NCBI GenBank assembly: GCA_965248735.1 | Contig: OZ252146.1 | Location: 2,276,154 to 2,340,153 of the forward strand | DNA: 64,000 bases | Direction of reading: 5' to 3' | DNA from: Candidatus Aldehydirespirator sp. | GTDB lineage: Bacteria > Actinomycetota > Acidimicrobiia > Acidimicrobiales > Aldehydirespiratoraceae | Part shown: positions 31,456 through 57,948 of the stretch, piece by piece | Layout of the letters: each line of letters opens with the position of its first letter | How positions within the stretch are numbered: the first letter of the stretch is position 1 | Program-made: the position numbers and the translations under genes | The notes under the pieces: generated by a model | The model's input: only the letters and a program-made list of their open reading frames with translations | What the model was told of the DNA's origin: nothing | Databases searched by the model: none

Positions 31456-31506
31456 CGACGGCGACAGATCCGCCAGCTGAACGACTGCCGACCAGAGCCT
31501 GTCTGT

Positions 31507-32121: not shown

Positions 32122-32125
32122 CCGG

Positions 32126-33715
32126 CTACCCTCCTCTCGTCAAGCGCGAGACCGCCTGTTGTTGTTGCTGTGCGGCCGCTGAGTCCACGACCCCGTCCAT
32201 GTACGACTCGATGGTGAGTTGTCGGCCACTGGTCGGCTCGGTCGCGGTGCAGGAGATCCGGCCGTCGGTCGAGACTGAGACAGACACCTCGACCGGTGAA
32301 CCCGCCTTGAGATCGGGAAGGTCCGTGAGTTGCCCGTCGAGCACCCGCCGGTTGTTCACCACCTCTTCAGAGGGGCGCGACCCGGCCTGCTCGTAGAGCT
32401 GTACGCGGATCTCCCTTTGGTTGTCCAGGATTGTGGCGTAGGTGGCGCTCTTGCTGACCACCGGCAGCGGAGTGTTGGGCTCGAGCAGATGGTGAACGAA
32501 CTGCCGGGTGCCGCTGGAGTCGTGACTGTCGTGCAGCAGGATGCCGAGAGCGCGGGGGAGCACGCCGGCTGAGGGCCTCAAAGCGAGCCCGCGACTCGAC
32601 TTCGACGAACGTTCGCCCGTGCCCGAGGCCAGAAACCGCTGGGGGTTGCGGGCTCTATTCAGCGCCGCGGCGTGCAGCGCAGCGCCTTTCGCTACCGCGA
32701 GGTCGGGGTCGTTTAGGTGAACCCGCACATCGAACTGGCGGTTGAGTGCCGCGGCGATCATCGGCATGTGTGTCGATCCGCCGACGAGAATGATCTCGGT
32801 CAGCGATGAGCGACTCTTGTTCCTAGCTTCCTCAATGGTGCGTTCGACCACTTCCATTGTGGCCGTCACCAAGTCGCGGCATAGCGCCTCGAAGTCGTCG
32901 CGTCGAACGTGCACCGTGAGGCGGTTGCCGGGCAAGTAGAGCGTGACGGTGGTGGCCTCTCGGGTGCTGAGCTGACGCTTGGCTCGCTCGACCGAGTTGG
33001 CGACTTGCAGCATCAGGTCGTCGTCGTCAGCCAGGTCGGGGTCGCCCACGATTCCCGCGGCGCGTTCGATGATGAAACCGCCGAGTCGCTCGTCCCAGTC
33101 GAGTCCGCCCATCTGGCTCAGACCGTCTGTGATCAGCACGCTGGGTCCGTGCTCGGTGAGCTCCAGCACCGTCGTGTCGAAAGTACCGCCGCCGAGATCG
33201 TAAACCAGCACGAGCCCCGACGCTCCGGTGTCGACACCGTATGAGATCGCCGCCGCGACGGGCTCGTCCACCAGTTCCATGAGGCTCAATACGGCGATAC
33301 CAGCCGCTAGGGCAGTCGCCTCTCTCTCGCGAGAGCCGAAGTAGGCCGGAACGGTTATCACCGCAGCCAGATCCTCCGAGCTGAGACCCAAGGCGAGGGC
33401 CGCGCTGCGTGCAAGCCCGTCGAGGATTATCGCCGAGATGCCCTCGGGCGTGAATGAGGCCGATCCGAACCTCCTCGTGATGTCGGTGCCCATCTGACGC
33501 TTGATCGCGGTGACGACACTGTCCGGTTCTATGATGCCGAGATCCTTGGCGTCGGCGCCGACAATGGGTTGCCCCTCATCGGGAAAGTAGACAACCGAAG
33601 GCGTCAGCTTCTCGCTGTCTTCGTTCAGTACGGGCACGGCCTCCCCGGCCTCATTGACAGCAGCTACCACTGAGTACGTGGTGCCCAGATCGATTCCGAT
33701 GGGACGTGGTGGCAC
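32126..33715 (-). CDS. Hsp70-family ATPase (copy 1), lacking the C-terminal helical lid
   Basis: 'IGIDLGTTYSVVA', 'VITVPAYFG', 'VYDLGGGTFDTTVLE' and 'IILVGGSTHMPMI' are actin-fold Hsp70 phosphate and adenosine motifs. 529 aa versus about 620 for DnaK. Confidence 0.85.
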   Translation of the reverse strand: MPPRPIGIDLGTTYSVVAAVNEAGEAVPVLNEDSEKLTPSVVYFPDEGQPIVGADAKDLGIIEPDSVVTAIKRQMGTDITRRFGSASFTPEGISAIILDGLARSAALALGLSSEDLAAVITVPAYFGSREREATALAAGIAVLSLMELVDEPVAAAISYGVDTGASGLVLVYDLGGGTFDTTVLELTEHGPSVLITDGLSQMGGLDWDERLGGFIIERAAGIVGDPDLADDDDLMLQVANSVERAKRQLSTREATTVTLYLPGNRLTVHVRRDDFEALCRDLVTATMEVVERTIEEARNKSRSSLTEIILVGGSTHMPMIAAALNRQFDVRVHLNDPDLAVAKGAALHAAALNRARNPQRFLASGTGERSSKSSRGLALRPSAGVLPRALGILLHDSHDSSGTRQFVHHLLEPNTPLPVVSKSATYATILDNQREIRVQLYEQAGSRPSEEVVNNRRVLDGQLTDLPDLKAGSPVEVSVSVSTDGRISCTATEPTSGRQLTIESYMDGVVDSAAAQQQQQAVSRLTRGG

Positions 33716-33741
33716 AGTTTTCTCCTACCTGTTTCTCCTAC

Positions 33742-37702: not shown

Positions 37703-37826
37703 TGCTGTCCGACGTCCACCACACGATGAGAGCGACCGTCAGCACAATGACGAACCCGACGTGTAGCGCGCTCCAACAACGACGGAGCACCTTGTAGAGG
37801 GGCGGAGGCGGAGGGTCCGGGTTCAT
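37611..37826 (-). CDS. Small single-TM protein (71 aa)
   Basis: 'MNPDPPPPP...' followed by TM 'ALHVGFVIVLTVALIVWW'. ATGA overlap with the stop of the upstream GTPase gene. Confidence 0.45.
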   Translation of the reverse strand: MNPDPPPPPLYKVLRRCWSALHVGFVIVLTVALIVWWTSDSNGPDLLDDWWGRILDVQNSIARSVPFPWDA

Positions 37827-39610
37827 GCTGGCTTCTCGGTCTCATCGGGCGGCGCATTCTCGTCTCGCCCAGGTCGATCTTGGGTTGGTGCCGCCTGGCG
37901 TGGCAGGTCTAGCCCCGCTGAGGTCTGAGTTCCATAGAGTGATGCGATGAACGACACCGGACGAAGCGGATGGACTGTGCTGTCTTCGGGCAACCTGGAC
38001 ATGGAATCGACCATGAAGTAGACGACACGCTCGAAGTCCAGTTCCATGCGCTTCACCAAACGATCCTCGCCAGATGCCATCAGCCATTCGCGAATCGACT
38101 CTGAACGAGTCGAGCCCATGAAGACGATGGAGACTTCGCGCAGGACATCGGCCTTCGTGAGCACTAATCCAAGGGCTCGTTTGTGAAGGGGGACGCTCTC
38201 GTTTCGCATCCGATCCACGGCTGATGAGTAGGCGTCAATTGCCTTGCCTGGCGCCACCTGCACCGGTAGCCGAGAATCCATTCGCTCGAGGCGGGCGCGA
38301 CAATGGTCGAGAGCGAGGGGATCTACCACGAAGAGGAGCGCCAACGCATTGTCCAGATACCTCAGACTCGATGTCGATTCCCAGCTACTGAAGTGTTGGC
38401 CAGCGGCGTCGATAAAGTGCATCTCGACCGACCGCCTTCTCGACCTTTTTGTCATGAAGTCATACACGAGGGGGCTATGTGCAACACTCGTATTGGGCAT
38501 TGAACTGCCTACGTCTAGGACACTTGTGAAGTTATTCAAGCCGTTACTGGCCAATCGAGAAAGTGGTACCAACTCTCCTCCATCGGCCGAGAGTCTTGTT
38601 GACAGATGAGCCATAGCCGAACCTAGCAGATGAGTCTTGCCTGCGTTCGATTCACCAATCACGGGAACAAGGAACGTTCGACGCGTTCCTGCACCTTCGG
38701 ATTGCGGCGTGTCACAAGTCGGACACCTTACGGTCATCCCTCGGCTAGCTCGGAGGACCGTTGTCGGTAGGTTGCTTCCGCACTCACACCGTCTAGAAAT
38801 TACACCCAATCGCGTAGCACGAATATCCCGATGCACTACTGGACAGTCGGCATCGGTGCATTCGTAGCTTGGAACTCGAGTCTCAGCGTAGCACTGCGTG
38901 CATACCATAGAGGCCCTTCGTCGGGTAAGGGCAAACCAGCCGATCGCTTGAAATGCCGATTGAAAAATACGTTGTCCTATAGTAATCGTCAGTCCGATGG
39001 CAATCATTACCACTGTCCAAATGAGTAGGGACATGGCTATACCCAAGAAAACAGCTAGGAAAGGGCCTATCATGATAGCAAATCGAATGAAGTCGACTAT
39101 TCCCTTGCTGTATTGCCTTGAGGTCTTCTTGGCAGCAGCGGTATGCGGTCCTGGTGTTGGTACATTCCCGCCAGAGAGATCGCCTACCATAGCGGGTCCC
39201 AACAGCAGCCTGCCTGTCTTCCTGAGCCAATGCAAGACTTCGAGACGCACGGCATTCACATCGCTTTTGGCTTGAAATGGAATGTACGTCGGCCAAGCCC
39301 TATCCCATCCATAGTGCTCTGCAGGTCCGCTCGGATTTGAACGGAATACATGGCCAGTGGCGACACGATCGGGCGTGAGCAGGACAGGTGACGATGCGCT
39401 CCGTCCAGTGAGAACCGCCAGCGGAATCCATGTGCCTAGTCCGCCGCCTACAACGACTGCCGTTGTCGCAACAACAAGATACGTTGTTACGACAATCGCA
39501 AGCAGTCGAACGAGTAGTGCTACCACTATCCAAACGGCAAATACGACAGCCGCCGCAACGATAGCTATGGCAACAATGGACCAAAAACATCCACTGAGAT
39601 CATCATCCAT
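37823..39610 (-). CDS. Membrane-anchored zinc-ribbon TRAFAC-type GTPase (candidate 'double-GTPase' partner 1)
   Basis: N-terminal TM segments. 'CTQCYAETRVPSYECTDADCPV...CECGSNL...RCPTCD' zinc ribbons. G1 'VIGESNAGKT', G3 'IDAAGQ', G4 'VLTKAD'. Confidence 0.65.
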   Translation of the reverse strand: MDDDLSGCFWSIVAIAIVAAAVVFAVWIVVALLVRLLAIVVTTYLVVATTAVVVGGGLGTWIPLAVLTGRSASSPVLLTPDRVATGHVFRSNPSGPAEHYGWDRAWPTYIPFQAKSDVNAVRLEVLHWLRKTGRLLLGPAMVGDLSGGNVPTPGPHTAAAKKTSRQYSKGIVDFIRFAIMIGPFLAVFLGIAMSLLIWTVVMIAIGLTITIGQRIFQSAFQAIGWFALTRRRASMVCTQCYAETRVPSYECTDADCPVVHRDIRATRLGVISRRCECGSNLPTTVLRASRGMTVRCPTCDTPQSEGAGTRRTFLVPVIGESNAGKTHLLGSAMAHLSTRLSADGGELVPLSRLASNGLNNFTSVLDVGSSMPNTSVAHSPLVYDFMTKRSRRRSVEMHFIDAAGQHFSSWESTSSLRYLDNALALLFVVDPLALDHCRARLERMDSRLPVQVAPGKAIDAYSSAVDRMRNESVPLHKRALGLVLTKADVLREVSIVFMGSTRSESIREWLMASGEDRLVKRMELDFERVVYFMVDSMSRLPEDSTVHPLRPVSFIASLYGTQTSAGLDLPRQAAPTQDRPGRDENAPPDETEKPA

Positions 39611-42032
39611 TGCTGCGGTCCTTGGGAGCGGCGCGAGAAGTGGCTTTTCTCCATTCTCTACGTTGAAATCGTTCGCGCAAGGGCGTCACTGTCTTGAGCA
39701 TGCTTCCAAATTTCGCAGCAAATGAATCATCGAGGGATTCTCCAACGAGCATCACCGTAGCCCGGTTGCGTGGGTCGTACCACCAGTCCTTCAATGCAAG
39801 TGCGATTGCCTCACGAAGATCTGCTGGGCAGCCAGGGTGCAACCACATAAGTGTGGAAACATACACTGCATCGATCGGATCAATCGTGAGTCTGTCGGAT
39901 AGAGATTCCAAAATGGGATGACGCCAGTCAATTTGGTGTAGGTTCAAAATGGCTGCCGACGTCTCGACGTCATGGCATTCCATAGCGAGCTTCGCGATGG
40001 TCCGATGTCTCAAGATGATCGCTCGGCGACAATGAGACGCGATTCTCTGAAGAAATGCATTTGGGTGCAGAAGTCTATGATCGACACTGGCTGCTTGGAT
40101 GCTCCACCGCACAATGTCTTCGCTTTCGCTCATCAATTTTCTAGTGGATTCGGTGAGGCCATCCGGTTGGAGTTGAATCAGAAGGTCCACGAGCACAACG
40201 ATGCACGAAGCGTCTCCAGAACTTGTGAGGCGCTGGGTGACGATCCCTTCAATGACAGCGGCTAGGCTTGGCTCAATTGTGTCGTGAACCCGAAGCCATA
40301 GGTCGAGAAGCGGGATGTCGAGCAGATTGCTAAACCCAAAAAATGCGTCCCATGAAGTGGGCGCACAGTGTGAAACGTACCGTTCGAATTCCTGCCGTCG
40401 AGCGGGGGTATCGAGTTTGGCGAGCTTACCGGCGAGAAGCCACGGAAACAGTGGATTGTCAGGAGTGAAGACTTCGGGAACGTTCGCTGCCCAGTCCCAT
40501 ACTCCCGCCCGCAGTTGTGCGACCACCTCTGAACGCTGAGTGCCGTAGAGTCGGGAAGACAGCGTGTCGCATACGGCCATTCGGACGCATTCGGTGTGCA
40601 GCCACGAGGTGTGTTGGCGTTCGAGCTTTGGATTGGATACCCAGAGTTGGCCGAGTCGTTCGATAGATGAATGCACCAGTTCGTGAGAGAGTTCGGTATT
40701 TAGCCATCGTGCGAGCGAAAACATATCGGACAGCACGTCATCAGGCGAATCGTCGACGATTGTGGCCAACAACCTCGCGGCGTGGCTACGCGCATCTTGA
40801 TCGGGCCAGTCGATGGTCGGTGGCACGCCTTCGACCGCGAACGTCCGGGCCCATACAGAGGACGCCACCGTAGATAATGCCGAGACTTCAAGCGCAGCCA
40901 ATGTGCACCCAGTCATCAATTCATTTTGGTCGCATTCGTGTAGTGCGACGATCGCGCGGAGGAGTAGCTCAATAGTCGCGTCATCACTCGCATCAAATTC
41001 GTGCACAGCATCGACCAAAGAGGGTCCAAAAGTGGAAAGATCGGCGCTCTGTTGATGCCTTGCAAGTGCCTCCAATACAGCAGCAGCTGCAGGAGCAGGA
41101 CTGCGAACGTGTCGACTGTTCAGAACGACTCTCTCGGCGGCGATGACAGCGACGTCTGGGGACAACAGGTTCTGCCAGCGCCGGCTGACCTGAACCGCTC
41201 TCAGTGCCTGCAACGGATCGGCCTGAAGGAACCAACGCGCATAGACGTGAGCCGTCTCATCCGTTTCAACTGCGGTACCTTGAAAGGAGCGGAGATCAAA
41301 CCAGTTGGCCTCGGAGGGGATGGGTTGTTCCAACAGATCAGGGTCGGTTCCAACAATATCGAACCGCGCATCAGCTACTGGCCTATTGCTGAAGGCATAG
41401 AAGCTAGTCGACAACGCTGTGTCGCGATCCAAGAAAAGTGTTCCAACCGTTATCCACTGCGCGATAACTTGGAGATCGGTGTGAAGAAGAACGAGGCGCG
41501 TTCTCGGCTTGTGAGATGCTTGCTCGACCATTGTCAGGAAACTGGGAAGAGCATCAACAGCCGCCGTTGATGCTGCAACTAGGTACTGCAAGGCGGAGAG
41601 TCCGAAAGAGTCGCTGACCGACAGCGGAGCCGTGAGCGATGGCAAGGTCGTGGTCGGTGACTTCTGTAGCGTCCAGACTGATGCGCCAAAGAGCTGCGCT
41701 GGAAGATGACTGACAAAGTCGTTGGCGTCATGGGTAACAATACAATGTGTGACTTGATTACCCGACCGTCCATCAGCCATGCGGCCCAGGTACCTTCCCC
41801 GGGCTACGATGAATCTGTCCTCTACCGCCAGGTATGCGAACGATTGAGGAAACTCCTCGTTCTCGAGTCTACGCTGAACGAGTGAGTGTGGCACGACATA
41901 CAGGACATTACGAGCGAGTGCCTCATCTTCTTGATCGGTATCATCACTGACTGCATAAAACTGAAACCCTGTACGAAAGTGAATCGATTCTTCGCGAGAT
42001 GCATCCGTATAGATAAGGCTGGCGAAACTCAC
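39603..42032 (-). CDS. Large cytoplasmic alpha-helical protein, candidate GTPase-associated protein (GAP1-like N-terminus)
   Basis: 809 aa. The N-terminus 'SLIYTDASREESIHFRTGFQFYAVSDD...GRSGNQVTHCIV' resembles the 'QLhYTS...GFQ..A.S' pattern I recall for GAP1 N-terminal domains. Sits between the two GTPase genes. Confidence 0.45.
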   Translation of the reverse strand: MSFASLIYTDASREESIHFRTGFQFYAVSDDTDQEDEALARNVLYVVPHSLVQRRLENEEFPQSFAYLAVEDRFIVARGRYLGRMADGRSGNQVTHCIVTHDANDFVSHLPAQLFGASVWTLQKSPTTTLPSLTAPLSVSDSFGLSALQYLVAASTAAVDALPSFLTMVEQASHKPRTRLVLLHTDLQVIAQWITVGTLFLDRDTALSTSFYAFSNRPVADARFDIVGTDPDLLEQPIPSEANWFDLRSFQGTAVETDETAHVYARWFLQADPLQALRAVQVSRRWQNLLSPDVAVIAAERVVLNSRHVRSPAPAAAAVLEALARHQQSADLSTFGPSLVDAVHEFDASDDATIELLLRAIVALHECDQNELMTGCTLAALEVSALSTVASSVWARTFAVEGVPPTIDWPDQDARSHAARLLATIVDDSPDDVLSDMFSLARWLNTELSHELVHSSIERLGQLWVSNPKLERQHTSWLHTECVRMAVCDTLSSRLYGTQRSEVVAQLRAGVWDWAANVPEVFTPDNPLFPWLLAGKLAKLDTPARRQEFERYVSHCAPTSWDAFFGFSNLLDIPLLDLWLRVHDTIEPSLAAVIEGIVTQRLTSSGDASCIVVLVDLLIQLQPDGLTESTRKLMSESEDIVRWSIQAASVDHRLLHPNAFLQRIASHCRRAIILRHRTIAKLAMECHDVETSAAILNLHQIDWRHPILESLSDRLTIDPIDAVYVSTLMWLHPGCPADLREAIALALKDWWYDPRNRATVMLVGESLDDSFAAKFGSMLKTVTPLRERFQRREWRKATSRAAPKDRSNG

Positions 42033-42050
42033 AATCGGCCCTCAGACTGT

Positions 42051-43223
42051 TTACCTTGAAACTAGACTATCTCGTCTTCGAGCCTTGGAAATCACGCCAT
42101 GCTTGAACATGAGCCACAGCAAGGGTTCTGCCACCCGACGCGAATTGATTTGTGATCCTCGTACGGTGCTACTGCCATAGTCAGGTTCCGCACCCAAGGC
42201 TGAGACTGCAAAGAATCGAAATGTCTTGAAATTCTGATCCAAAGCGGTAAGAACAGGACCGCCACCCCAGTCATCGACTAAGCCCTGCAGATGATGGTGA
42301 AGTTCGGTAGCGTCGTGGTCGTCAAATCCTGGGGAATCAGGTTCGGTACGACGGAGTAGTCCAGTTGAGTCAGTGTCGTTCCAGAAGGAGTCGAGTTTCG
42401 TCAACACGACAGCTAGAGGGCGACGCAGATGCTTCTTGGCAGAAAGCTGCTCTTCTTGGCGGAGGATGACAATGAGTGGTGCGAGCACATCCATCGGACG
42501 GGTAGGTTCGGTAGCTAGTTTGGATAGGCCAGGAAAGTTCGGAAATCCAAAAGGATCCAACAGCAAGATGAGACCGTCCGTCGTACCTATGTACCTCCGT
42601 TCGCGCATACTCGCTTGGGATAGTAGTTCCTCGCCTGATGCGTCATTGAAGGACAAGAAGCCTACTGAAGCACCAGGGTTCTTACGCCATGCGAGAATCG
42701 CAGGCGTATCATTGCCGCGGATGATCGGATTGGTTGCGGGTGGCAAGGAACCGTTGGTCCGGTTCATTCCATCATAATAGCTCCTCAACAGGTTGAAGGT
42801 CTCGTCTTTCTCTCGCTCGATCACGGTATGAACGGTTGCACCGAACCGCTTGTCAGCTATAATGTCAAGTTCGCCGCAGAGGACGGAGAGCAAGACCGTC
42901 TTTCCAGAGCCTCGGACGCCTACGATTCCAAAGAGTGGTGACGGAACCTCGCCAAAGTGAGGCGGTAGAGCAGAATGGCATGTTTGGCAGGCAAGGATTA
43001 GAGCCTTGCCTCCGCAATGTGGACAGGTTCCGTCAGAATTCTTTGGAAAGGTGGGCATAGCCCTTTCCTCGGCAAGCAACCCCAATGCGTCCTGGCGTTG
43101 ACGATCGGGCCGTTTAGTACACTGCGTCTTACCGGGGGCGGGGTGGCTGCCGTTACATTGGCGATGTATGGCCCGAGGATCTATGCGATCATAGCAGAAG
43201 GGGCAGGCAACGGTACGTGGCAT
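42051..43223 (-). CDS. Zinc-ribbon TRAFAC-type GTPase (candidate 'double-GTPase' partner 2)
   Basis: 'CPFCYDRI...CPHCGGKALILACQTCH' zinc ribbons. G1 'GVRGSGKT', G3 'FNDASGE', G4 'VLTKLD', G5-like 'VSALG'. Confidence 0.65.
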   Translation of the reverse strand: MPRTVACPFCYDRIDPRAIHRQCNGSHPAPGKTQCTKRPDRQRQDALGLLAEERAMPTFPKNSDGTCPHCGGKALILACQTCHSALPPHFGEVPSPLFGIVGVRGSGKTVLLSVLCGELDIIADKRFGATVHTVIEREKDETFNLLRSYYDGMNRTNGSLPPATNPIIRGNDTPAILAWRKNPGASVGFLSFNDASGEELLSQASMRERRYIGTTDGLILLLDPFGFPNFPGLSKLATEPTRPMDVLAPLIVILRQEEQLSAKKHLRRPLAVVLTKLDSFWNDTDSTGLLRRTEPDSPGFDDHDATELHHHLQGLVDDWGGGPVLTALDQNFKTFRFFAVSALGAEPDYGSSTVRGSQINSRRVAEPLLWLMFKHGVISKARRRDSLVSR

Positions 43224-43232
43224 GACAGGAAA

Positions 43233-46145
43233 TCAGGTCGGTGGGCGTCGAAGGAGAGTGGAGACTCGACACCGTTGAGTCCGGCTCTTGGGTTTCAAGC
43301 GAACCGATGCGTTGTCGACAGGAAAGGCGCGAATCCATTTGACGTTCAATCGACGAGGAATTGATATTTTCACACGAACGCGATCGCCGCGTGCGGACAA
43401 GACTAGGCGATGGCGTGACAGTTCTTGGTGTCCTTCAGCGATCGTAGGTTCGTAGCGGGCGGAAGCAACAATAATCACCTCTGTATCGATGACCCGTTCC
43501 GATTCTGAGTAGTAGGTCAAGGTACATTGGCGGGATCTACGAGACCGGATGGGATACCAACCGAGGCAATACGAAGCGACGCTGACGCGCGATTCCCAAA
43601 TCGCATCAAACCACTCAGAATCATGGTGAGAGCGAACCAACGACGGAGAGGTTGTCGAACACTGCTCAGGAAGGCTGTATACGCCACGCAGTCGCAGTTT
43701 CAGTGATCCGGTTTCCATGGGTACCTGTAAGAGGTTGTCGGCGATGCTCCGGTGACTAGCCACTATAGTATTCTCATGGAGCTGTCCGCCGGACCACTGC
43801 CATTCAACTTGAACCCGATCGATCGACGCAGGCCAAGGCCAAGAGATCTTCAAGACATCACCGAGCTGCTCAAATGACACACTGTCTATACGCTCAGATA
43901 CGGCGAGAATCTTAACACAACCGCCGAGTGCGAACCTTTCTCGGAGTGTGAATGCTTGCAGGTATGAGACGCCGAATCCGATCGTGGTATCCATTACGCT
44001 AACATCTCCATCAGGTTGAATTGATCCTCGCAGTTGGTAACCCGTCGATGCGGACAAATCTTCCAACTCTTCAATTGAGACTTGTTGTCCGATGCGGTAA
44101 GGGGAAGGTTGTTGGAATGACCAAAGCCCTATTGAGTAGTGATTTTGGCTGGGCAACCTGGCGATGAGATGAGGTAGCTGATCGCGGTTTCGACGGATGT
44201 CTATATCGAAGTCTGTGATCGGCAGCATGGGCGGTCGAACGAGAACATCAAGTGCGACCGGTTCTGATTCATATATCCTGCCATCATTGGTGCGGAAGAG
44301 CGCTGTCGCGTCAAAACTATATTCGGTGAGCAATTCCAAATCAGTGAACGTATGAGAGTCCTTCGCGAATTCATGGAAGACAGTCTTATCTCCCGGTGTA
44401 GATACGGCGATGCGCACAGCCGTGCATCTGCGAGGAGCAGTCCACGTCAATCTAATACTAGATTCGTCTGTCGTGGCCGACAAGCCTGTGACAGGAGGAC
44501 AAAAGAAGATCGGTCCATGAATCGCCGCGGAAGAAAAGAGGGTTTGAGAATCGACCCCAGGCCCGGATACCTCTTGATAAGTTGATATACCATACCAGAA
44601 GTGCCGTGCGATTGGTGGCGTGTCATCGACAAAATCGCTTCGATTGAGTTGCTCCGCGATGACCTGGCCGTCGTTGGCACCAAGCGGTTGGGCGTCCTGT
44701 TTGCATATCAACCGATAGCGAGAATCTAGAGAAGCCTCCGTACCCGATTCCCACACAATCCTGAGTGCTTGACCCAGCTCTCCCTGAGCGTTTTCGCAAG
44801 CTATCACACCCCGAATGTTAGGTGGACTGGGCGGCAGTGCACGGAAGACATTTCGAAGTTCCTCGTCTTCGTTGATTGCCAACGCGGCGCGAATGTCTAC
44901 CCTAGCAGAAATAAAATCACGAACTTCTACAGCCTTGAGTCCGGCTTCTCGTTGTCTAGCATAGCGTTGACTAAGACCGGCCAATTGGTCTCCCAGGTCT
45001 TTGAGTTGGCGCTGTGACGTGTCGCTCGAACCCTTCTTTGCCGTAGTGCTCATCGCGTGCTGGTGGAGGTGGTTGGCTTGGTCAAGATCCTTATCGAGTA
45101 TGGATTGGCGGATCTGTTGTACGAAGCCCTCGATCGAGTCGGTGTGCGATCGACGCGAGAGGTTCCGATGCATGTGAACGTGCACCGCGATGCGTTGTGC
45201 ATCATCATGCGCTAGTCCGAGGCTCTCTAGATAGCCCATGATCCGAGAGGGCACGCGTGGTGCCTGCCTGATCACATGGTCAAGTAGATGCTTGAGGACG
45301 ATGGCGTGCAACTCGTGATCATTGGTGGCTCTGAGTGCGCTCAAGACTGCCTCTCGGTGCTCACCTGTGTCTTGTCGCTCCTGCCTGGCAGAGTCACGCG
45401 CTCGCGCTACGGCCGCCAGCGTTAGCTGGGTTTTGCTGTCTTCACCGTTAGCGTTCAGAATCTGGAATCGATCGACAATCTTGAAGCGACTTTGGGATTG
45501 ACCATTACCGACAATATCATCGAAGATCGCATGCGGAAGCGTTCGACGGTGTGCCTTCTCGAGGCAAACTGTCATAGTGTTCACATCCAACTCGATGTCA
45601 GGGACTGTGATGGCTTCAGCAATTGTAAGGTTAGCATCGGCGGCGCATTGGTGAATATCGTCATCACTGAAGTCATCTTCAGACAACCCTAGCAAGGTGA
45701 TCGTGGCGCGAACAGCGTCCTCCGTCACTACTCCGTAAGCACCAAACTGGCGTTCTAACTCTCCCGAGTCCCGCATCGTGGATGTCGCTCGATTCTGCCG
45801 TTCTCGACGAAGTTCGTTCCAAAACGCGATCGAAGAAACCTGGCGCTGTGCCTTTAGCCATTTCTCAAGACGTTGCAATGGACCCACATACTGAGATAGT
45901 TCCAGCTTCAAATTCGACCAGATATGGTGAATCACGGAGACGCGCTTCTCTATTTCTACCCGGTTCATAGAAGCGCCGATGTCATAGAGTGTGATCAGGT
46001 CCAGATCGTGCAGGCGCGATGAATCGCTCTGCTCCAAGCATTGACAGACGTCTACAAAGTCAGATAGGTGTATCTGGCGAAAGTATGGCCTCAAAACTCT
46101 CGACTTGTAATCCCTAGCGTACGCTTTATCACTAGACTTAGCCAT
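43233..46145 (-). CDS. Large hypothetical protein (970 aa): helical N-terminal half, FN3-like domain and beta-rich C-terminal half
   Basis: 'PVTGLSATTDESSIRLTWTAPRRCTAVRIAVSTPGDKTVFHEF...TFTDLELLTEYSFDATALF' looks like a fibronectin type III module. The rest is unassigned. Confidence 0.5.
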   Translation of the reverse strand: MAKSSDKAYARDYKSRVLRPYFRQIHLSDFVDVCQCLEQSDSSRLHDLDLITLYDIGASMNRVEIEKRVSVIHHIWSNLKLELSQYVGPLQRLEKWLKAQRQVSSIAFWNELRRERQNRATSTMRDSGELERQFGAYGVVTEDAVRATITLLGLSEDDFSDDDIHQCAADANLTIAEAITVPDIELDVNTMTVCLEKAHRRTLPHAIFDDIVGNGQSQSRFKIVDRFQILNANGEDSKTQLTLAAVARARDSARQERQDTGEHREAVLSALRATNDHELHAIVLKHLLDHVIRQAPRVPSRIMGYLESLGLAHDDAQRIAVHVHMHRNLSRRSHTDSIEGFVQQIRQSILDKDLDQANHLHQHAMSTTAKKGSSDTSQRQLKDLGDQLAGLSQRYARQREAGLKAVEVRDFISARVDIRAALAINEDEELRNVFRALPPSPPNIRGVIACENAQGELGQALRIVWESGTEASLDSRYRLICKQDAQPLGANDGQVIAEQLNRSDFVDDTPPIARHFWYGISTYQEVSGPGVDSQTLFSSAAIHGPIFFCPPVTGLSATTDESSIRLTWTAPRRCTAVRIAVSTPGDKTVFHEFAKDSHTFTDLELLTEYSFDATALFRTNDGRIYESEPVALDVLVRPPMLPITDFDIDIRRNRDQLPHLIARLPSQNHYSIGLWSFQQPSPYRIGQQVSIEELEDLSASTGYQLRGSIQPDGDVSVMDTTIGFGVSYLQAFTLRERFALGGCVKILAVSERIDSVSFEQLGDVLKISWPWPASIDRVQVEWQWSGGQLHENTIVASHRSIADNLLQVPMETGSLKLRLRGVYSLPEQCSTTSPSLVRSHHDSEWFDAIWESRVSVASYCLGWYPIRSRRSRQCTLTYYSESERVIDTEVIIVASARYEPTIAEGHQELSRHRLVLSARGDRVRVKISIPRRLNVKWIRAFPVDNASVRLKPKSRTQRCRVSTLLRRPPT

Positions 46146-46191
46146 CTTGGTCGGTCTCTTCCAATCACCACGCTAGAGCCGTTCTGAACCC

Positions 46192-47808
46192 TTAGCCTCG
46201 TACGTTGACCCCGGACATTACTTCGGTAGCGGCTACGACTTCATCGGGTTGTAGAACTGAGATTGTTACCTCGAGCTTGAGTTGCTGCTGCGACTTCGGC
46301 TCTATCGCGTTGAGTGTCGCTCTCAATTCGTTATCAATCGTTAGAAAGAAGTCGATAGCTGATCCCTTCGGTAGTGACGGCAGATTTGTGAAAAGCGCTC
46401 CTTCGGCTGGAGTGATTTCTCTATTGTTGGCCACCTCTTCTGACTCATGTGCGCCTGCCTGCTCGAATATCTCAATATTGATGGTCGTCGCATTGTCATC
46501 CATCGTTTGACCTTGTACGTGCCGATTCTTGATGGGAAGAGTCTCATTCTGGTGTGCAATGAAGCCGACATAATATTCACGAACACCATCGGTCCGGGTC
46601 TCCCGTACAAATCCCACTCCAAGGCCCCGTGAAAGGACATTGTTTACGACTGTTGTTGACGCCAAGTACCGTGTTCGGGCAGTTGACGAGCCGCCGGATT
46701 CAGGGCCCGAGCCCCCGGCCTGATCCTCGGCTGCCTGTTGGTTTAGGGCGGCACCGTATAGCGCTGCGCCCTTGGCTACGGCGAGATCGGGGTCTGCTAG
46801 CCTGAAGGCCCATTGTGGATAGCGCGATTCTAGAGATGCCTTGACTGCTGGCATCCGTGTGGAGCCGCCGACCAGAAGGACTTCGTCAATCTTCAGAGAG
46901 CTATCCTTTTGCATGGCCTTTGCGAGGGTGCGATCGACGGTCTCGAGAGTCGTGTTGAGGAGGTGGGCCGTGACGTCCTCGAACTCCTGACGGCTTACAG
47001 TGACCCGTTCTCGTATCGCTCCGTAACCCAAGATCACAGGGCATTCGATCCGATTGGACAGCTTCTTCTTGGCCCTTTCGGTTTCCTCGGCGAGGCGTTG
47101 CAAAAAGTCGTCGTCGTCACGGGGGTCCTCCTCAAGTGAGACCGCCTGGACGAACTTGTCAGCAAGAATGTTGGACAACTCGCGATCCCAGTCCGCACCG
47201 CCCAACTCGCGGTTGCCGTCAATCACCATGACATCTATCGGTCTGGCGTCTTCATAGGTCCGCATGATAGTAGTGTCAAAGGTGCCGCCGCCCAAGTCAT
47301 AGACCAACAGGGTCTTTGCCTGTTGGGACGAGAAGGAATAGGACATAGCAGCTGCGACAGGCTCTGTCACAATGCTGACAACCTCTAGCCCGGCGATCTC
47401 TCCAGCCTGTTGGGTAGCAGTCCTCTCAAGCAGCCCAAAGTATGCAGGGACAGTAATGACAACCTTGTTTGTGTCGATGCCAGTCTGTTCCTTGGCGAAC
47501 TGTGCGAGGTGCTTCAGTATCAGTGAGGATAGCGTTTCTGGCGTGTGGTCCACACCGTGATACGTGACGCTGTAGTCAGTACCCATCCTGCGCTTAATGA
47601 GTTGTACGACGTTATCAGCGTCGAGGACAGCAGAATTCTTGGCCGTTTCACCGACAATGGTGTTGTGTGACTCTTCAAAATGAACGGCGGACGGTGTCGT
47701 CTCATTGTCGTTGTCAGGATTTCTTATGACCTCCGGCTGGTCTGTCTCATTGATGTACGCGATCGCAGAGTAAGTAGTACCTAGATCAATACCGAATATG
47801 TCAGTCAT
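46192..47808 (-). CDS. Hsp70-family ATPase (copy 2), lid-less
   Basis: 'IFGIDLGTTYSAIAY', 'VITVPAYFG', 'VYDLGGGTFDTTIM', 'VLLVGGSTRMPAVK'. 538 aa. Confidence 0.85.
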   Translation of the reverse strand: MTDIFGIDLGTTYSAIAYINETDQPEVIRNPDNDNETTPSAVHFEESHNTIVGETAKNSAVLDADNVVQLIKRRMGTDYSVTYHGVDHTPETLSSLILKHLAQFAKEQTGIDTNKVVITVPAYFGLLERTATQQAGEIAGLEVVSIVTEPVAAAMSYSFSSQQAKTLLVYDLGGGTFDTTIMRTYEDARPIDVMVIDGNRELGGADWDRELSNILADKFVQAVSLEEDPRDDDDFLQRLAEETERAKKKLSNRIECPVILGYGAIRERVTVSRQEFEDVTAHLLNTTLETVDRTLAKAMQKDSSLKIDEVLLVGGSTRMPAVKASLESRYPQWAFRLADPDLAVAKGAALYGAALNQQAAEDQAGGSGPESGGSSTARTRYLASTTVVNNVLSRGLGVGFVRETRTDGVREYYVGFIAHQNETLPIKNRHVQGQTMDDNATTINIEIFEQAGAHESEEVANNREITPAEGALFTNLPSLPKGSAIDFFLTIDNELRATLNAIEPKSQQQLKLEVTISVLQPDEVVAATEVMSGVNVRG

Positions 47809-48734
47809 GTAAGTTCCTCCGTTGTTGGACGTATCGGGTCATCCAGTAGTGTTATGTTGTCAGGTTTTGTAGCGATGATCTCAGGGTGAGGATCGTCAGA
47901 CTCGTTAGAGAGTTGTGCTTCGTATCGGTAGACATCGACTCTCGCATACAGGATTGGCTTTGTATCCTCAGGTGCAGCGAATCCTTGTCTTCGTACCTTG
48001 GCGATGCATCGGTCGAATGCGGGATCGTGGGTAAGTCGCGTCCGCTCTGCAGTGTGGAGTACGGCATCAAACCTTTCACCGGCGGCGACGTTGAGGGAAT
48101 CGAATCCAAGATGTTCGATGGCTTCCTCGATTCTGTGCGCAAAGAGTCCGATTTCTTTGTGTATTCGCTCACGATCCAGAGAATCCAATGAATGCAACTG
48201 GATGGCATGAGCGTGTAGTTCTGCGAGGGAAACTATGACGGGCTTCAAGAGGCTGCGTATCTGATCGGCGCGCAGGTCTTCGATCTGTGTTTGCATACGA
48301 CGGATGATGTTCTCATGAAACTCAGATCTACCGTGGAAGTCAGTGATTTTACTCCCAATTTGGAGGGTCAATTCGAGAAGCTGAGAGAGTGTTTCGGATT
48401 GTGCAGTCATGGGAGTCTCAAGTGGGTCTGCAACATCATTGCCGAAGGACTGATCGGCGCTCTCGCTGTCTTGTATGTCTTGAGCCTCGATCGGTGATGC
48501 TTGCCGCTCAGCCTCCCATCCGCCGATGACTCCTTGTGTGTCGAGGTCATCGAAATCGGCGGTACTGGAATCGCTATCCCCGGATGGTGGCGCGGGTTCC
48601 GGTTCGGAGGGCACGGATTCCCGGTTGAGGTCTGAGCTGGCTGCGGTCTGCGGGCCGGTGCTGGGCGGCGCCGAATCGCCCGATGCTTCAGGCTGCGTCG
48701 TCGAACCCTGCGAGTCGCTTTCGGGCCGGGTCAT
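47805..48734 (-). CDS. GrpE-like nucleotide-exchange-factor candidate with acidic S/P-rich N-terminus
   Basis: Coiled-coil 'SEFHENIIRRMQTQIEDLRADQIRSLLKPVIVSLAELH' parallels GrpE 'xEFxNYRKR...DLLPVLDNLE'. C-terminal 'AAGERFDAVLHTAE...VRRQGFAA...ILYARVDVYRYE' parallels the GrpE beta domain 'GExFDPxxHEA...VxxxGYxx...xLRPAxVxV'. ATGA overlap with Hsp70 copy 2. Confidence 0.5.
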   Translation of the reverse strand: MTRPESDSQGSTTQPEASGDSAPPSTGPQTAASSDLNRESVPSEPEPAPPSGDSDSSTADFDDLDTQGVIGGWEAERQASPIEAQDIQDSESADQSFGNDVADPLETPMTAQSETLSQLLELTLQIGSKITDFHGRSEFHENIIRRMQTQIEDLRADQIRSLLKPVIVSLAELHAHAIQLHSLDSLDRERIHKEIGLFAHRIEEAIEHLGFDSLNVAAGERFDAVLHTAERTRLTHDPAFDRCIAKVRRQGFAAPEDTKPILYARVDVYRYEAQLSNESDDPHPEIIATKPDNITLLDDPIRPTTEELT

Positions 48735-54163: not shown

Positions 54164-55216
54164 CTAGCTGATGAGGGTGCGGCTGTGCCAACGCTCCGCG
54201 GTGTCGGCGTGGGCTGCGTCGGCGAGGGGTACGTAGCCGACCTCGCTGACGGCCTGGCTGAGGGCGTCAGAGACGTAGAAGTCGACGTAGGCGACCACAG
54301 CGGGGTTGGCGGCGGCATTGTCGGCGTTGACGTAGATCCACAGGTCCCGGCTGATGGGGTACTCGTTGGAGGCGATGGTGTCGGGGGTGGGCTGGACGCA
54401 TCCGTCGCCGCCGTCGACCTCGAGCAGCTTCACGCCGGCCGCGTTGATAGTGAAGGCGAAGCCGACCCAGCCCAGGCTGGTATCGCTGGACTGGATGCCC
54501 TGCAGGATGACGTTGTCGTCGCCGGAGGGCTTGTAGTCGACGCGGGTGGTGGCATCCACGCCGGCCTCGTCGGCGAGGTCCTCGATCACGATCTCGACGA
54601 ACGAGTCGAAGGTGCCGGACTCCTCGCCCGGTCCGAAGATGTTCAGCGGCGCGTCGGGCAGGCCCGCGGAGGCCTCGGCCCAGGTGCGGGTGCCCTCGCC
54701 GTTGGGGCCGATGAGGTCGAAGAGCTGCTCGAAGCTCAGGCACTCGACCGCGCCGTTGTTGGCGTTGGTCATCACCGCCATGCCGTCGACGCCCACCTTG
54801 AGCTCGACGATGTTGGTGATGCCGGCCTCGAAGCAGGCCTCCTTCTCGGAGTCTTTGATCTGGCGGGAGGCGTCGGAGATGTCGGTCTCGCCCGCGCAGA
54901 ACAGCTTGAAGCCGTCGCCGGTGCCGGGGCCGTCCACGGTCACCGACACATCAGGGGCCACATCCTCGAACAGCTCAGCCGCACGGATCGAGATCGGCTC
55001 AACCGTCGACGAACCCGAGATGTTCACCGAACCGGAGATGCCGGCGTCGGTGGTGCCGGAGCTGGTGGTGCCGGAGCTGGTGGTGTCGGAGCTGGTGGTG
55101 CCGGAGTCGGCCGGCGTGGAGACTTCGTCCTCGTCGCCGCCGCATGCTGCAGCCACGAGCGACATCGTCATGAGAATCACCGGCAGCCACAGCAGCCGGC
55201 GCCTTGTGTTGCGCAC
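54164..55216 (-). CDS. pstS: Phosphate-binding lipoprotein PstS
   Basis: Signal plus lipobox 'LVAAAC', S/T-rich linker, 'ISGSSTVEPI' phosphate-binding motif. First gene of pstSCAB-phoU. Confidence 0.85.
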   Translation of the reverse strand: MRNTRRRLLWLPVILMTMSLVAAACGGDEDEVSTPADSGTTSSDTTSSGTTSSGTTDAGISGSVNISGSSTVEPISIRAAELFEDVAPDVSVTVDGPGTGDGFKLFCAGETDISDASRQIKDSEKEACFEAGITNIVELKVGVDGMAVMTNANNGAVECLSFEQLFDLIGPNGEGTRTWAEASAGLPDAPLNIFGPGEESGTFDSFVEIVIEDLADEAGVDATTRVDYKPSGDDNVILQGIQSSDTSLGWVGFAFTINAAGVKLLEVDGGDGCVQPTPDTIASNEYPISRDLWIYVNADNAAANPAVVAYVDFYVSDALSQAVSEVGYVPLADAAHADTAERWHSRTLIS

Positions 55217-55354: not shown

Positions 55355-56635
55355 TCAGGCCAAGTCGGCCAGCAGCTCCGCGATCCGCCTCGCGTCGAAG
55401 CCGTTGACCTTCCCGACCACCTCGCCGGCACCGTCGAGCAGCACCACGCTGTCGTTGCCGGCACCGTAATGGCGCCAGGTGTCTGAGGAGTCGCTCCAGA
55501 GCATGGTCGGCGGGCCCCCGTAGACGACTGGGAAGTTCTCGGCTCGAGAGAGGTCGTCCTGCGCGCCCACACCGATCACGACGACTCGGTCGGCGTTGTC
55601 TCGGGCCAACTGCCCGACGGCGGACGCACTCCGCCGGCAGAACGGTCAATACGGTGCCCAGAACCAGAACAGCAGCGGCGTGGAGCCGTCCACGAAGTCC
55701 CGGAGACTCACCGTCTCTCCGGTGCGCACATCGATCATCTGGTGATCCGGGACGTCGGTCTCGACGGTGGGTGCGGCCGTGGTAGTGGGCGTTGCTGTGG
55801 TGGTGGGCGCGGCTGTGGTGGTGGCCTCGGCTTCGGCGGCTGCCGCGGCTTGGGCCTCGGCGGCTGCGGCTTCGGCGGCTGCGGCTTCGGCGGCTTGGGC
55901 CTCGGCGGCTGCGGCTTCGGCGGCTGCGGCTTCGGCGGCTTGGGCCTCGGCTTCGGCGGCGGCTTGGGCTTCGGCGGCTGCGGCTTCGGCGGCGGCTTGG
56001 GCTTCGGCGGCTTCGGCGGCTGCTAAGGCTTGGGCTGCGGCTTCGGCGGCGGCTTGGAATGCGGCTTCCTCGGCGGCTTGGGCTGCGGCTTGGAATGCGG
56101 CTTCCTCGGCGGCTTGGGCGGCGGCTTCGGCCTCGGCGGCTTCGGCTTCGGCCTGGGCCTGCTGCAGTTGCTCCGCAAGCTCGGCGACTACCGCGGGGTC
56201 TACAGCTCCTTCAGGCTCAGCTTCGGCAGCCTCGAGTGCAAGCTCGGCCTCGGCTGCCTTGGCAGCGGCAGCTTCGGCGGCGGCAGCGGCGGCGGCGGCT
56301 GCGGTTTCGGCCTCGGCGGCTGCGGCTTCGGCGGCGGCGGCTGCGGCTTCGGCGGCTGCGGCTGCGGCTTCGGCTTGAGCCTGCTCTAGCGCGGCGGCAT
56401 CCGCGGCGCTGGTGGTGGAGGTCTTCGCGTCGGTCTCGGATGCTGCGGTCGTGGGAGGAGAGACGTCCGCGGCGACCCCGGTGTCTCCAGCTGGCTGGGT
56501 CTCCGTGGGCGCGTCGTCAGTGGCACCGGTGCTCTGGCCGCCGACACTCGGCTCCGGGTCGCGGCCGCAGGCGGAGGCCAGCACCGCAAGGGCAAGGAGC
56601 ACCGCGACAGTTGGGGCGCGGGACGGCATCTTCAT
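55355..56635 (-). CDS. Thioredoxin-fold (TlpA/redoxin-like) lipoprotein with a long Ala/Glu-rich repeat; candidate selenoprotein (UxxC, TGA at 55646-55648)
   Basis: The two track ORFs (55646-56635 and 55355-55609) are in the same frame, separated only by TGA. Read-through gives 'LLFWFWAPY-U-PFCRRSASAVGQLARDNADRVVVIGVGAQDD', i.e. the redoxin WCxxC motif with TGA at the first Cys. Lipoprotein signal 'LAVLASAC'. Confidence 0.6.
55610..55640 (-). promoter_or_regulatory. Candidate bacterial SECIS hairpin (gene A)
   Basis: mRNA sense reads CUGCC-GGCGGA-GUGCG-UCCGCC-GUCG-GGCAG, starting 6 nt after UGA. The apical loop begins 17 nt after UGA and contains GU. Confidence 0.4.
55830..56390 (-). repeat. 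Degenerate tandem GCx/GAx repeat encoding an (A/E/Q)-rich low-complexity region
   Basis: DNA is built of ...gcggcttcggcggctgcggcttcggcggcttgggcctcggc... units. It translates (minus strand) to AAEAAAAEAQAA-type repeats between the lipoprotein signal and the thioredoxin domain. Confidence 0.8.
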
Positions 56636-56638
56636 TGC

Positions 56639-57349
56639 TCAGGCCAGTTCGGCCAAGCGTTCCACGATGCTTTGCGGGTCGAAGCGGGCGGCGCTCTCGT
56701 CGACCAGGTTGCCGTCGGAGTCCAGCAGCAGGACCGCGGAATTGCGGGAAACACCGAAGTGGCTCCAGGACTCGAACGAGTCGCTCCACAGCATGGTGAA
56801 CGTGACTCCCGTCTGGCCCAGGAATCTCTCGGCGTGGGCGAGGTCGTCCTGGGCGCCGATTCCCACGACCCTCACTGTTTCGGCGTTCTCTTGAGCGAAC
56901 TGCTCAAGCTGAGGGCCCTCGGCCCTGCAGATCGGTCAATGCGGCGCCCAGAACCAGAACAGCAGGGGCGTCTGGCCGTCCACCACCGACTGGAGGCTGA
57001 TCGCCTCGTCTGTGTGCATGTTGATCATCTGCAGGTCGGGCACGTCGCCTGGACCCGCCAGCGCGGGGGAAGCTGCGTCGCCGTCGTCCGCGACCGCGCT
57101 GTCAACAGTGCTGTCACCGGCGGCGGCGCCGCCGCTCGGGTCTTCGGCTGCGTCGCTGGCCGCAACGTCGCTCTGGGCGACGTCGGCCTCGGTGGTGGCG
57201 GGGCCGGTCGCGTCCGACTGCGGGGACTCGGAGCCCCGAGTCTCGGCGCCGGCCGGCTCTGTGACGGTGGTGGTGTCGTCGGACCCGCAGGCCGCGACGG
57301 CCAAGACCAAGGCAAAGGCCGCGACCAGGACGGGGAGTCGGATTCTCAT
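56639..57349 (-). CDS. Thioredoxin-fold (TlpA/redoxin-like) lipoprotein; candidate selenoprotein (UxxC, TGA at 56936-56938)
   Basis: Track ORFs 56936-57814 (real part from ATG 57349, 'MRIRLPVLVAAFALVLAVAAC' lipobox) and 56639-56875 share a frame. Read-through gives 'LLFWFWAPH-U-PICRAEGPQLEQFAQENAETVRVVGIGAQDD'. Paralog of the adjacent gene with TGA at the identical position. Confidence 0.6.
56909..56930 (-). promoter_or_regulatory. Candidate bacterial SECIS hairpin (gene B)
   Basis: mRNA sense reads CUG-C-AGGGCC-GAG-GGCCCU-CAG, starting 6 nt after UGA. The loop begins 16 nt after UGA. Confidence 0.35.
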
Positions 57350-57948
57350 TCGTCCTTCCTCTTGCCGCGTGCCTTCTGTTCTTTCTTCCAGGCCCGAACC
57401 CGCTGCAGCGCCTGGGGGCCGTCGATGTCGGCCACCGACCGGGGCTGGTCGTCGGAGAACGCTCCGGCCTGTTCCTCCCAGCCCTCGGGGCGGACGCCGA
57501 AGCGCTTGGCCAGCACAGCGGTCAGGATCCGGGCCTTCTCGTCTCCGTAGCCCGGAAGGTCTCGCAATCGCCCGAAGAGCTCCTCGCCGGTCTCCGCATC
57601 GGCCCAGACCCCGCCGGCGTCGCCGTCGTAGCGGTCCGCGACGTGCCGGCAGAGGGCCTGCATCCTGGAGGCCATCGATCCCGGGAACCGGTGCAGCGCC
57701 GGCTTGGCTTTCACCAGCGCCGCGAAGGCCTCGGGGTCTCGCGCCGAGATGTCGTGGGCGTCCAGGTCCGATCCGAGCCTGTCGGCTAGGCGGCGGGGTC
57801 CCATGAACGCCCACTCCATGGGAATCTGCTGGTCGAGCATCATCCCCACCAGCAGCGCCAGCGGGTCCGCGTTGATCAGGCCGTCGGCGGCCTCGTCCCC
57901 TGTGACCGCCAGGGTTCCCGTCGCAGTCCGCGTCATTGGGCCGAGCAT
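57346..57948 (-). CDS. HhH-GPD-type base-excision DNA repair family protein
   Basis: 200 aa. 'DPLALLVGMMLDQQIPMEWAF', 'LPGYGDEKARILTAVLAKRFG' hairpin-helix-hairpin region and a basic C-terminal tail. ATGA overlap with the downstream lipoprotein gene. Confidence 0.6.
   Translation of the reverse strand: MLGPMTRTATGTLAVTGDEAADGLINADPLALLVGMMLDQQIPMEWAFMGPRRLADRLGSDLDAHDISARDPEAFAALVKAKPALHRFPGSMASRMQALCRHVADRYDGDAGGVWADAETGEELFGRLRDLPGYGDEKARILTAVLAKRFGVRPEGWEEQAGAFSDDQPRSVADIDGPQALQRVRAWKKEQKARGKRKDE

Follow-up and report, generated by a model that had tools for sequence, protein, structure and literature searches.

Tandem interrupted genes in Aldehydirespirator

The window, a 64,000-nucleotide (nt) stretch of contig OZ252146.1 from “Candidatus Aldehydirespirator” sp., carries on its minus strand two tandem paralogs, A and B. 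They encode predicted thioredoxin-fold lipoproteins, and each is interrupted by an in-frame TGA at the first Cys of a CxxC active site. The comparative evidence indicates that both are very probably genuine selenoprotein genes, which decode this TGA as selenocysteine (Sec) and which gene callers have wrongly split. Their features are the following.

56639..57349 (-): paralog B, full read-through gene by translation; 236 codons including the predicted Sec, with its own TGA stop at the end
55355..56635 (-): paralog A, full read-through gene by translation; 426 codons including the predicted Sec
56936..56938 (-): in-frame TGA of paralog B, predicted Sec codon; opposite the first Cys of CxxC in alignments
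55646..55648 (-): in-frame TGA of paralog A, predicted Sec codon; placed by translation and alignment of relatives
57287..57349 (-): signal peptide and lipobox of B, MRIRLPVLVAAFALVLAVAA-C21, read from sequence
56567..56635 (-): signal peptide and lipobox of A, MKMPSRAPTVAVLLALAVLASA-C23, read from sequence

Translation of the minus strand gives one internal stop per paralog, TGA in both cases, within the contexts LLFWFWAPH-stop-PICRAEGPQLEQFAQENAETVRVVGIGAQDD (B) and LLFWFWAPY-stop-PFCRRSASAVGQLARDNADRVVVIGVGAQDD (A). The TGA thus stands in place of the first Cys of FWFWAP(H/Y)-x-P(I/F)C, as a sequence-only reading of the locus had claimed for the two paralogs. In B, the lipoprotein signal is followed by a Thr/Asp/Ala-rich linker and the thioredoxin-fold domain with active site H-U-P-I-C. 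In A, an Ala/Glu/Gln-rich low-complexity linker of ~260 amino acids (aa) separates the lipoprotein signal from the thioredoxin-fold domain, whose active site is Y-U-P-F-C. The repetitive, GC-rich DNA of this linker (55780-56400) varies in length between strains, the called N-terminal fragments being 293, 290, 276, and 280 aa in L001 to L004. Public gene calls cut both genes (137 + 78 aa and about 290 + 74 aa), which bears out the suspicion of that reading that they are mis-annotated as four fragments. The N-terminal fragment of B exactly matches a database protein (P0031), and A has orthologues in at least 30 related genomes.

Conservation of the TGA codon

Relatives were drawn from 89 loci, which comprise 79 GTDB species-representative genomes (one per species) and metagenome contigs, with protein identities to B of 38-85%. 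The 79 loci belong almost entirely to metagenome-assembled genomes (MAGs) of Acidimicrobiales, among them “Ca. Aldehydirespirator” (previously UBA11606), “Ca. Poriferisocius,” and numerous bins from sponges. The best match (85% identical) lies on the closed 4.10-Mb chromosome OZ244866.1 of a “Ca. Aldehydirespirator” sp., and orthologues are also present on the closed chromosomes OZ244832.1 and OZ244836.1. Across the window and these loci, 117 copies from about 80 species have TGA as their active-site codon, four have a Cys codon (TGT in L038, TGC twice in L072, and TGC in L089), and none has TAA or TAG. Because TGA always falls at the catalytic Cys and Cys codons are its sole alternative, the pattern constitutes a Sec/Cys signature. 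The unrelated stops in relatives that the sequence-only reading had named as evidence against itself were not encountered at this codon.

A search of 5.8 billion proteins returned 92 relatives, nearly all of them fragments. The N-terminal pieces stop exactly at FWFWAPH despite very different leaders, and the C-terminal pieces are 78-99 aa long. Full-length proteins number only three among the 92, each of them with Cys: P0001 (APHCPVC), P0021 (APHCPIC), and P0082, a distant one. The Cys/Sec correspondence, which had been proposed as a check, is exact, as the Cys homologues P0001, P0021, L038, L072, and L089 all align at the TGA position.

The Cys forms lie at positions 10109 of L038, 9252 and 10106 of L072, and 8972 of L089, and their hosts are one Acidimicrobiaceae MAG and Sporichthyaceae MAGs. 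Related genomes also contain additional Sec paralogs, up to three copies per genome, with the variant active sites FWFWSPH-U-PKC, FWLYSPY-U-GFC, LWFWVPH-U-PIC, and VWVWAPH-U-PVC (L039 to L041, L049 and L050, L018 minus strand at 10915, L048 at 9358, and L082 at 11453). Screening of the whole window for an in-frame TGA with coding signal on both sides gave no locus besides A and B, and the same screen, noisy when applied to the window together with the related loci, gave nothing beyond further members of this family.

Downstream of the TGA, the frame is open for 94-104 codons in 115 of the 117 copies, and the two exceptions run longer. Among 109 distinct sequences, the resolving Cys (C3, counted after the UGA), G25, G27, D30, A35, and F38 do not vary, and W51 and W59 reach 99% conservation. 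UGA serves as the ordinary stop of 19 of the 35 window genes, including the ends of both paralogs, and therefore has not been reassigned.

These observations bear on the possibility that each gene is a pseudogene killed by a nonsense mutation. A premature stop does precede the catalytic domain in each, and both are split by gene callers. Against this, the same TGA occupies the same codon in all 117 copies without a single TAA or TAG, only two copies depart from the common downstream length, both by being longer, and the residues of the fold are invariant. The chance of pseudogenes is close to negligible, and the earlier argument that random pseudogenisation is unlikely, originally based on two paralogs, now extends to about 80 species. 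A single assembly artefact copied between entries is likewise at odds with the provenance of the loci, which come from Illumina, HiFi, and Nanopore-type assemblies of many different projects.

Each locus could instead contain two genes: a lipoprotein ending in FWFWAPH and a 74- to 78-aa protein starting at an internal GTG or ATG (MRVVGIGAQDD...), whose products might even come together as a split thioredoxin fold without the first Cys. Such an arrangement matches Prodigal-type annotation, and a start codon chances to lie about 20 codons past the TGA. Those 20 codons are nevertheless conserved in frame, with the resolving Cys at 100% and conserved R, E, Q, F, and A positions, and must therefore be translated. 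The called C-terminal starts vary (78, 80, 86, 90, and 99 aa), as expected of spurious starts, and the full-length Cys homologues are single chains, so a two-gene organization is extremely improbable. Taken together, the conserved TGA, the open and conserved frame, and the ordinary use of UGA as a stop exclude pseudogenisation, assembly error, and the two-gene arrangement for practical purposes.

RNA structure downstream of the UGA

Two consecutive hairpins follow the in-frame UGA of each gene.

56909..56930 (-): hairpin 1 of B, nt 9-30 past the U of UGA; GC-rich stem (one bulged C), GAG loop from 15 nt past UGA
56890..56908 (-): hairpin 2 of B, CUUGAGC-AGUUC-GCUCAAG; 7-bp stem, loop at 56897-56901, 34 nt after UGA
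55618..55636 (-): hairpin 1 of A, CGGCGGA-GUGCG-UCCGCCG; loop from 16 nt past UGA
55601..55617 (-): hairpin 2 of A, UCGGGC-AGUUG-GCCCGA; loop at 55607-55611, 34 nt after UGA

Hairpin 1 (nt 9-31 after the UGA) is present in both genes, with fold energies of -13.2 kcal/mol in B (z -1.7) and -13.6 kcal/mol in A (z -3.4), and most relatives have it as well. Its pairing register varies from sequence to sequence, with 68.7% of cells pairing in one register and double changes at five pairs. Hairpin 1 may be partly a by-product of palindromic codons for R-A-E-G-P.

Hairpin 2 folds at -9.9 kcal/mol in B (z -3.6, with 0 of 200 shuffles as good) and at -10.8 kcal/mol in A (z -2.9), and the paralogs differ by a compensatory pair, G-C in A where B has A-U. 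An ungapped alignment of 94 distinct 57-nt segments, from the UGA onward, yields a single consensus hairpin in RNAalifold, namely hairpin 2 (columns 32-37/43-48, loop A/G-G-U-U-Y), with the stem consensus YYGRGC/GCYCRR and the loop AGUUY. At pair 33-47, 62 sequences have C-G, 30 have U-A, and one is broken; at pair 35-45, 75 have A-U and 14 have G-C; and the three other pairs and the loop bases G39, U40, and U41 are invariant. The covariation exceeds that of all 500 shuffles, and every slid register is much worse.

The hairpin 2 sequence overlies the residues (L/V)(E/G)QFA(Q/R) and forces rare codons upon them. At these positions, the family uses CTT for Leu at 83% (4.9% in window genes), GCT for Ala at 83% (7.6%), CGA for Arg at 76% (11.7%), and CAA for Gln at 71% (17.7%). 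In 1.58 Mb of related DNA, 117 of the 123 occurrences of the hairpin 2 motif are situated exactly 33 nt after a family TGA. Six lie outside the family; of these, L059 alone has a perfect stem, and no in-frame TGA precedes it. Hairpin 2 is absent from the Cys forms, and L038 still has a hairpin 1-like structure, which fits a recent change from Sec to Cys that released the codons downstream. The compensatory changes and rare codons that uphold hairpin 2 speak further against pseudogenes, since independent decay cannot yield a shared TGA together with a maintained hairpin.

A published model of the bacterial Sec insertion sequence (SECIS) has a loop of 3-9 nt, a stem of 4-16 bp, a spacing of 16-37 nt, and a minimum free energy (MFE) of ≤ -7.5 kcal/mol, and its loop has G in the first two bases followed by G or U (PMC13188914). 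The 5-nt AGUUY loop of hairpin 2, its 6- to 7-bp stem, its 34-nt spacing, and its MFE in both genes all lie within these ranges. Hairpin 2 is the best SECIS candidate and probably the one that SelB binds, and hairpin 1 may be a spacer or helper. The hairpin claim of the sequence-only reading is borne out only in part: a hairpin with its loop 15-16 nt past the UGA is present in both genes, but that reading missed the better-conserved hairpin 2, the stronger candidate.

Thioredoxin-fold lipoproteins

Pfam profile searches, run with Cys placed at the stop, assign B to Redoxin (53.8 bits; gathering threshold, 26.6) and AhpC-TSA (38.9 bits), and A to AhpC-TSA (30.7 bits; gathering threshold, 26) and Thioredoxin (25.7 bits). 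The read-through thioredoxin fold is thus predicted to be intact, as had been noted from the letters alone. Both proteins begin with a signal peptide and a lipobox that can be read directly (LAVAAC with Cys21 in B and VLASAC with Cys23 in A), and the N termini of the homologues all contain AACGSD. These features predict that both proteins and their homologues are lipoproteins located outside the cytoplasm, in agreement with the earlier assignment.

Sequence searches of the PDB identified DsbF (3IOS; E = 7e-14) and DsbE/MPT53 (1LU4; E = 4e-12), and the UGA position aligns with the first Cys of LWFWAPWCPTC (WCPxC) in these matches. An AlphaFold (AF2) model of the Cys homologue P0001, which is 53% identical to B, has a domain pLDDT of >93. 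Foldseek places 1LU4 and 3IOS at the top for this model, followed by many ResA, CcmG, and StoA structures, with target-normalised TM-scores of 0.77-0.82. The P0001 model therefore predicts an extended thioredoxin fold with CxxC at the N terminus of helix 1.

Curated models place the proteins outside the named families. Scores are far below the cut-offs for NCBIfam DsbE (TIGR00385, 44.8 versus 123.15 bits; NF011941, 38.3 versus 359 bits), ResA (NF002854, 28.9 versus 170 bits), and TlpA (NF047696, 23.5 versus 230 bits). Among the curated NCBIfam selenoprotein models, none passes; the only match is NF053656 (21.9 bits versus a cut-off of 100), and NF047660 gave no match at E ≤ 0.01. The TlpA/ResA type originally suggested for these proteins therefore holds for the fold class, but the closest characterized relatives are the actinobacterial DsbE and DsbF.

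By sequence alignment, the cis-proline expected of the fold appears to be absent from both window proteins: Q-Q-P of DsbF aligns with R-N-S in B and likely with N-D-S in A, where the alignment is less secure. At this position (alignment column 68; 56690-56700 in B), 57 family sequences have Ser, 47 have Pro, and 5 have Asp. The cis-proline is nearly universal in thioredoxin-fold oxidoreductases, and about half of the A/B family appears to have lost it.

Evidence for and against selenocysteine decoding

Judged by standard comparative criteria, the sequences have what is expected of a bacterial selenoprotein gene, and the support that the sequence-only reading drew from two paralogs now comes from 117 TGA copies, Cys homologues, an open frame, and a covarying SECIS-like hairpin. 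Selenocysteine decoding is also documented in the same class. All 84 complete Actinomarina genomes (Acidimicrobiia; Actinomarinales) encode selA, selC, and selD together with a selB that is divergent (preprint 10.64898/2026.04.03.716425). Enrichment of SelA and SelB COGs has been reported for sponge symbionts (PMC5649159), and the sponge Acidimicrobiales bin76 has SelA, SelB, and SelD COGs (PMC5649159 Table S4). The occurrence of the machinery in Acidimicrobiia and the enrichment of SelA and SelB in sponge symbionts make the taxon less surprising. The earlier remark that UxxC oxidoreductases are a known kind thus stands, but its emphasis on the rarity of selenoproteins in Actinobacteria is weakened. 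A literature search returned no paper tying UBA11606 or Aldehydirespirator to selenoproteins.

Several results weigh against decoding as Sec. Neither tRNA-Sec (by ARAGORN) nor selA, selB, or selD (by tblastn with E. coli SelA, SelB, and SelD as queries [L090, L091]) was found in the 64-kb window or the 89 related loci (~1.5 Mb); ARAGORN did find tRNA-Sec in 25 control loci and therefore works. The sponge Acidimicrobiales bin134, about 90% complete, has SelD but no SelA or SelB (PMC5649159). At 34 nt, the spacing of hairpin 2 comes close to the maximum that the SECIS model allows, and no Rfam family reaches the gathering threshold in the window, bacterial SECIS being poorly represented in Rfam. 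Fold energies of the 61- to 93-nt contexts past each UGA are unexceptional compared with shuffles (z -0.3 to -1.9; GC-rich sequence), which further qualifies the hairpin first put forward. Finally, pN/pS past the UGA is only moderately below 1 (0.53, versus 0.24 upstream); these values come from close pairs only, because distant pairs are saturated under strong GC bias at third codon positions and are uninformative.

Two further results concern the machinery itself. The only GTPase match, in L040/L041, was rejected as SelB, because its N-terminal motifs, inspected by eye, point to a translational GTPase of a general kind, likely TypA/BipA. When metagenomes were scanned with a back-translated, high-GC version of the SelA pyridoxal phosphate motif, 120 SelA loci were recovered, none of which could be assigned to this lineage by tetranucleotide similarity, flanking-gene similarity, or SelA clustering.

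A rival explanation is that the UGA is read without Sec, either by a near-cognate tRNA inserting Trp, Cys, or Arg with the aid of the downstream hairpins or by SelB bringing Cys-tRNA(Sec). In that case, a conventional CxxC or WxxC protein would result. In its favor, no Sec machinery was found in the window or the related loci, and conserved hairpins show an RNA signal, not which factor reads it. On the other hand, recoding falls precisely on the catalytic Cys, where no codons other than those for Cys occur as alternatives; hairpin 2 agrees with the SelB-type SECIS model, down to the G-U of its loop; and the Sec machinery is documented in Acidimicrobiia. We know of no comparable bacterial case of SECIS-independent programmed UGA read-through at an active-site Cys, which also counts against this explanation. 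Recoding without Sec is accordingly considered improbable, and decoding as Sec is preferred.

Predicted decoding and function

In the proposed mechanism of Sec decoding, SelB would bring Sec-tRNA(Sec) to the internal UGA and would itself be recruited by a SECIS within the coding sequence, with hairpin 2 as the best candidate and hairpin 1, between the UGA and hairpin 2, as a putative spacer or helper. The terminal UGA of each gene has no SECIS-like element after it and would be read as a normal stop. The proteins would be exported by the Sec protein secretion pathway and then lipidated, giving membrane-anchored enzymes outside the cytoplasm. Replacement of the exposed, N-terminal attacking Cys of CxxC by Sec would create a U-P-x-C redox centre, through which the enzymes may exchange selenenylsulfide and disulfide bonds with secreted or membrane proteins, their putative substrates. 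No ccdA/dsbD, VKOR, or cytochrome c maturation genes lie in the window to decide the redox direction.

A broader proposal combines these elements: an uncatalogued, Acidimicrobiales-wide family of Sec-containing DsbE/DsbF-type lipoproteins in which Sec is ancestral and nearly fixed (117 Sec to 4 Cys). Its two-hairpin recoding element would place a SelB-type hairpin unusually far (34 nt) from the UGA behind a structured spacer, and duplication would have produced two to three paralogs in sponge-symbiont genomes, providing selenium-dependent redox chemistry outside the cytoplasm. As a whole, this proposal has about an even chance of being correct.

Genomic surroundings

Two neighboring genes frame the paralogs.

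57346..57948 (-): HhH-GPD (DNA-glycosylase-like) gene, upstream context
54164..55216 (-): pstS, opening gene of pstSCAB-phoU, 138 nt downstream of A

The TGA of the HhH-GPD gene and the ATG of B overlap as ATGA (57346-57349), an arrangement suggestive of translationally coupled genes in one operon, and the start of A lies 3 nt past the B stop (56636-56641). Both selenoprotein genes therefore look co-translated with the DNA-glycosylase-like gene. Directly downstream of A lies the pst operon (PstS, PstC, PstA, PstB, and PhoU), which the sequence-only reading had placed correctly. The gene order aceE, HhH-GPD, B, A, pst is kept in roughly one-third of related genomes, and the synteny with pst is kept in about 27-31 of 79.

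Elsewhere in the window, a low-GC island occupies 37823-48734 on the minus strand (GC 0.53 versus 0.63-0.70 in the flanks) and contains seven co-directional open reading frames (ORFs). These include a DO-GTPase2 (PF19993), GAP1-N2/GAP1-M (PF20013/PF20014), an HSP70-like ATPase, a GrpE-like protein, and two large ORFs of 390 and 970 aa without a Pfam match. The island looks like a horizontally acquired, GTPase-centred conflict or defence system. A second unusual cluster extends over 30425-36540.

30425-31204: papain-fold Gln-deamidase toxin domain
31507-32139: VWA protein
32126-33724: second HSP70-like ATPase
33742-36540: 932-aa ORF without Pfam match

Insertion-sequence genes are numerous (IS1595, HTH_38/rve, IS110, and rve/rve_3, at 4174-5247, 12474-13454, 23557-24582, 26949-27944, and 28761-30053), and the IS110 transposase is apparently interrupted by an in-frame TAG at about 26951.

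Significance

In public Acidimicrobiales MAGs, more than 100 orthologues are, like both genes themselves, now annotated as paired hypothetical fragments. Their recognition as selenoproteins would correct these annotations and add a lipoprotein of the DsbE/DsbF type to the bacterial selenoprotein catalogue. What is new is the DsbE/DsbF-type lipoprotein family across Acidimicrobiales, with Sec nearly fixed, outside curated NCBIfam models and systematically mis-annotated as fragments. The advance is incremental rather than conceptual, because thioredoxin-fold UxxC selenoproteins are already well established. If these proteins are selenoproteins, abundant sponge and marine symbionts rely on selenium for extracytoplasmic redox chemistry. 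In addition, the alignment of 94 distinct SECIS regions with clear covariation offers a training set for a lineage-specific bacterial SECIS model, of a kind largely absent from Rfam.

Comparison with characterized systems

ResA, CcmG (DsbE), and TlpA share with A and B the fold class (TM-scores of 0.79-0.82 to ResA), extracytoplasmic membrane anchoring, and the position of CxxC. They differ in that the NCBIfam scores are far under the cut-offs and no cytochrome c maturation or ccdA/dsbD genes are nearby. The proteins of NF053656 (TUGYCR) and NF047660 (HUIPC) are likewise thioredoxin-fold UxxC selenoproteins; HUIPC resembles H-U-P-I-C superficially, but the order differs (U-I-P-C versus U-P-I-C).

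Established UxxC selenoproteins of the Prx-like and Trx-like kinds include the “Prx-like thiol:disulfide oxidoreductase” of Kryukov and Gladyshev and, in data of the Global Ocean Sampling (GOS), Prx-like 1 (pfam00578) and Prx-like 3 (pfam08534). The UxxC families Prx-like 1/3 and Trx-like 1-3 are abundant in marine metagenomes (PMC2398784; PMC13188914; PMC5029168). Prx-like families, compared here by description only, resemble A and B in their thioredoxin fold, their AhpC-TSA/Redoxin Pfams, and Sec as the first residue of UxxC, whereas the A/B family is Acidimicrobiales specific, lipoprotein anchored, and DsbE/DsbF-like. The Sec-to-Cys ratio is 117:4 in the A/B family, while Cys is far more common than Sec in the GOS Prx-like families (PMC2398784).

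The best sequence and structure matches to the A/B family are M. tuberculosis DsbE (MPT53, Rv2878c; 1LU4) and DsbF (Rv1677; 3IOS). Like A and B, these are actinobacterial, exported proteins with an extended thioredoxin fold and two paralogs per genome; DsbE and DsbF are single-domain proteins. ResA and CcmG are reductants. Mt-DsbE and Mt-DsbF function as oxidants in vitro (PMC3853704). DsbE and DsbF have Cys rather than Sec and Trp rather than His or Tyr before the active site, and they keep the cis-proline (QQP) where B aligns Ser. The active-site context is nearly identical, LWFWAPWCPTC in DsbE/DsbF compared with LLFWFWAPH-U-PIC here.

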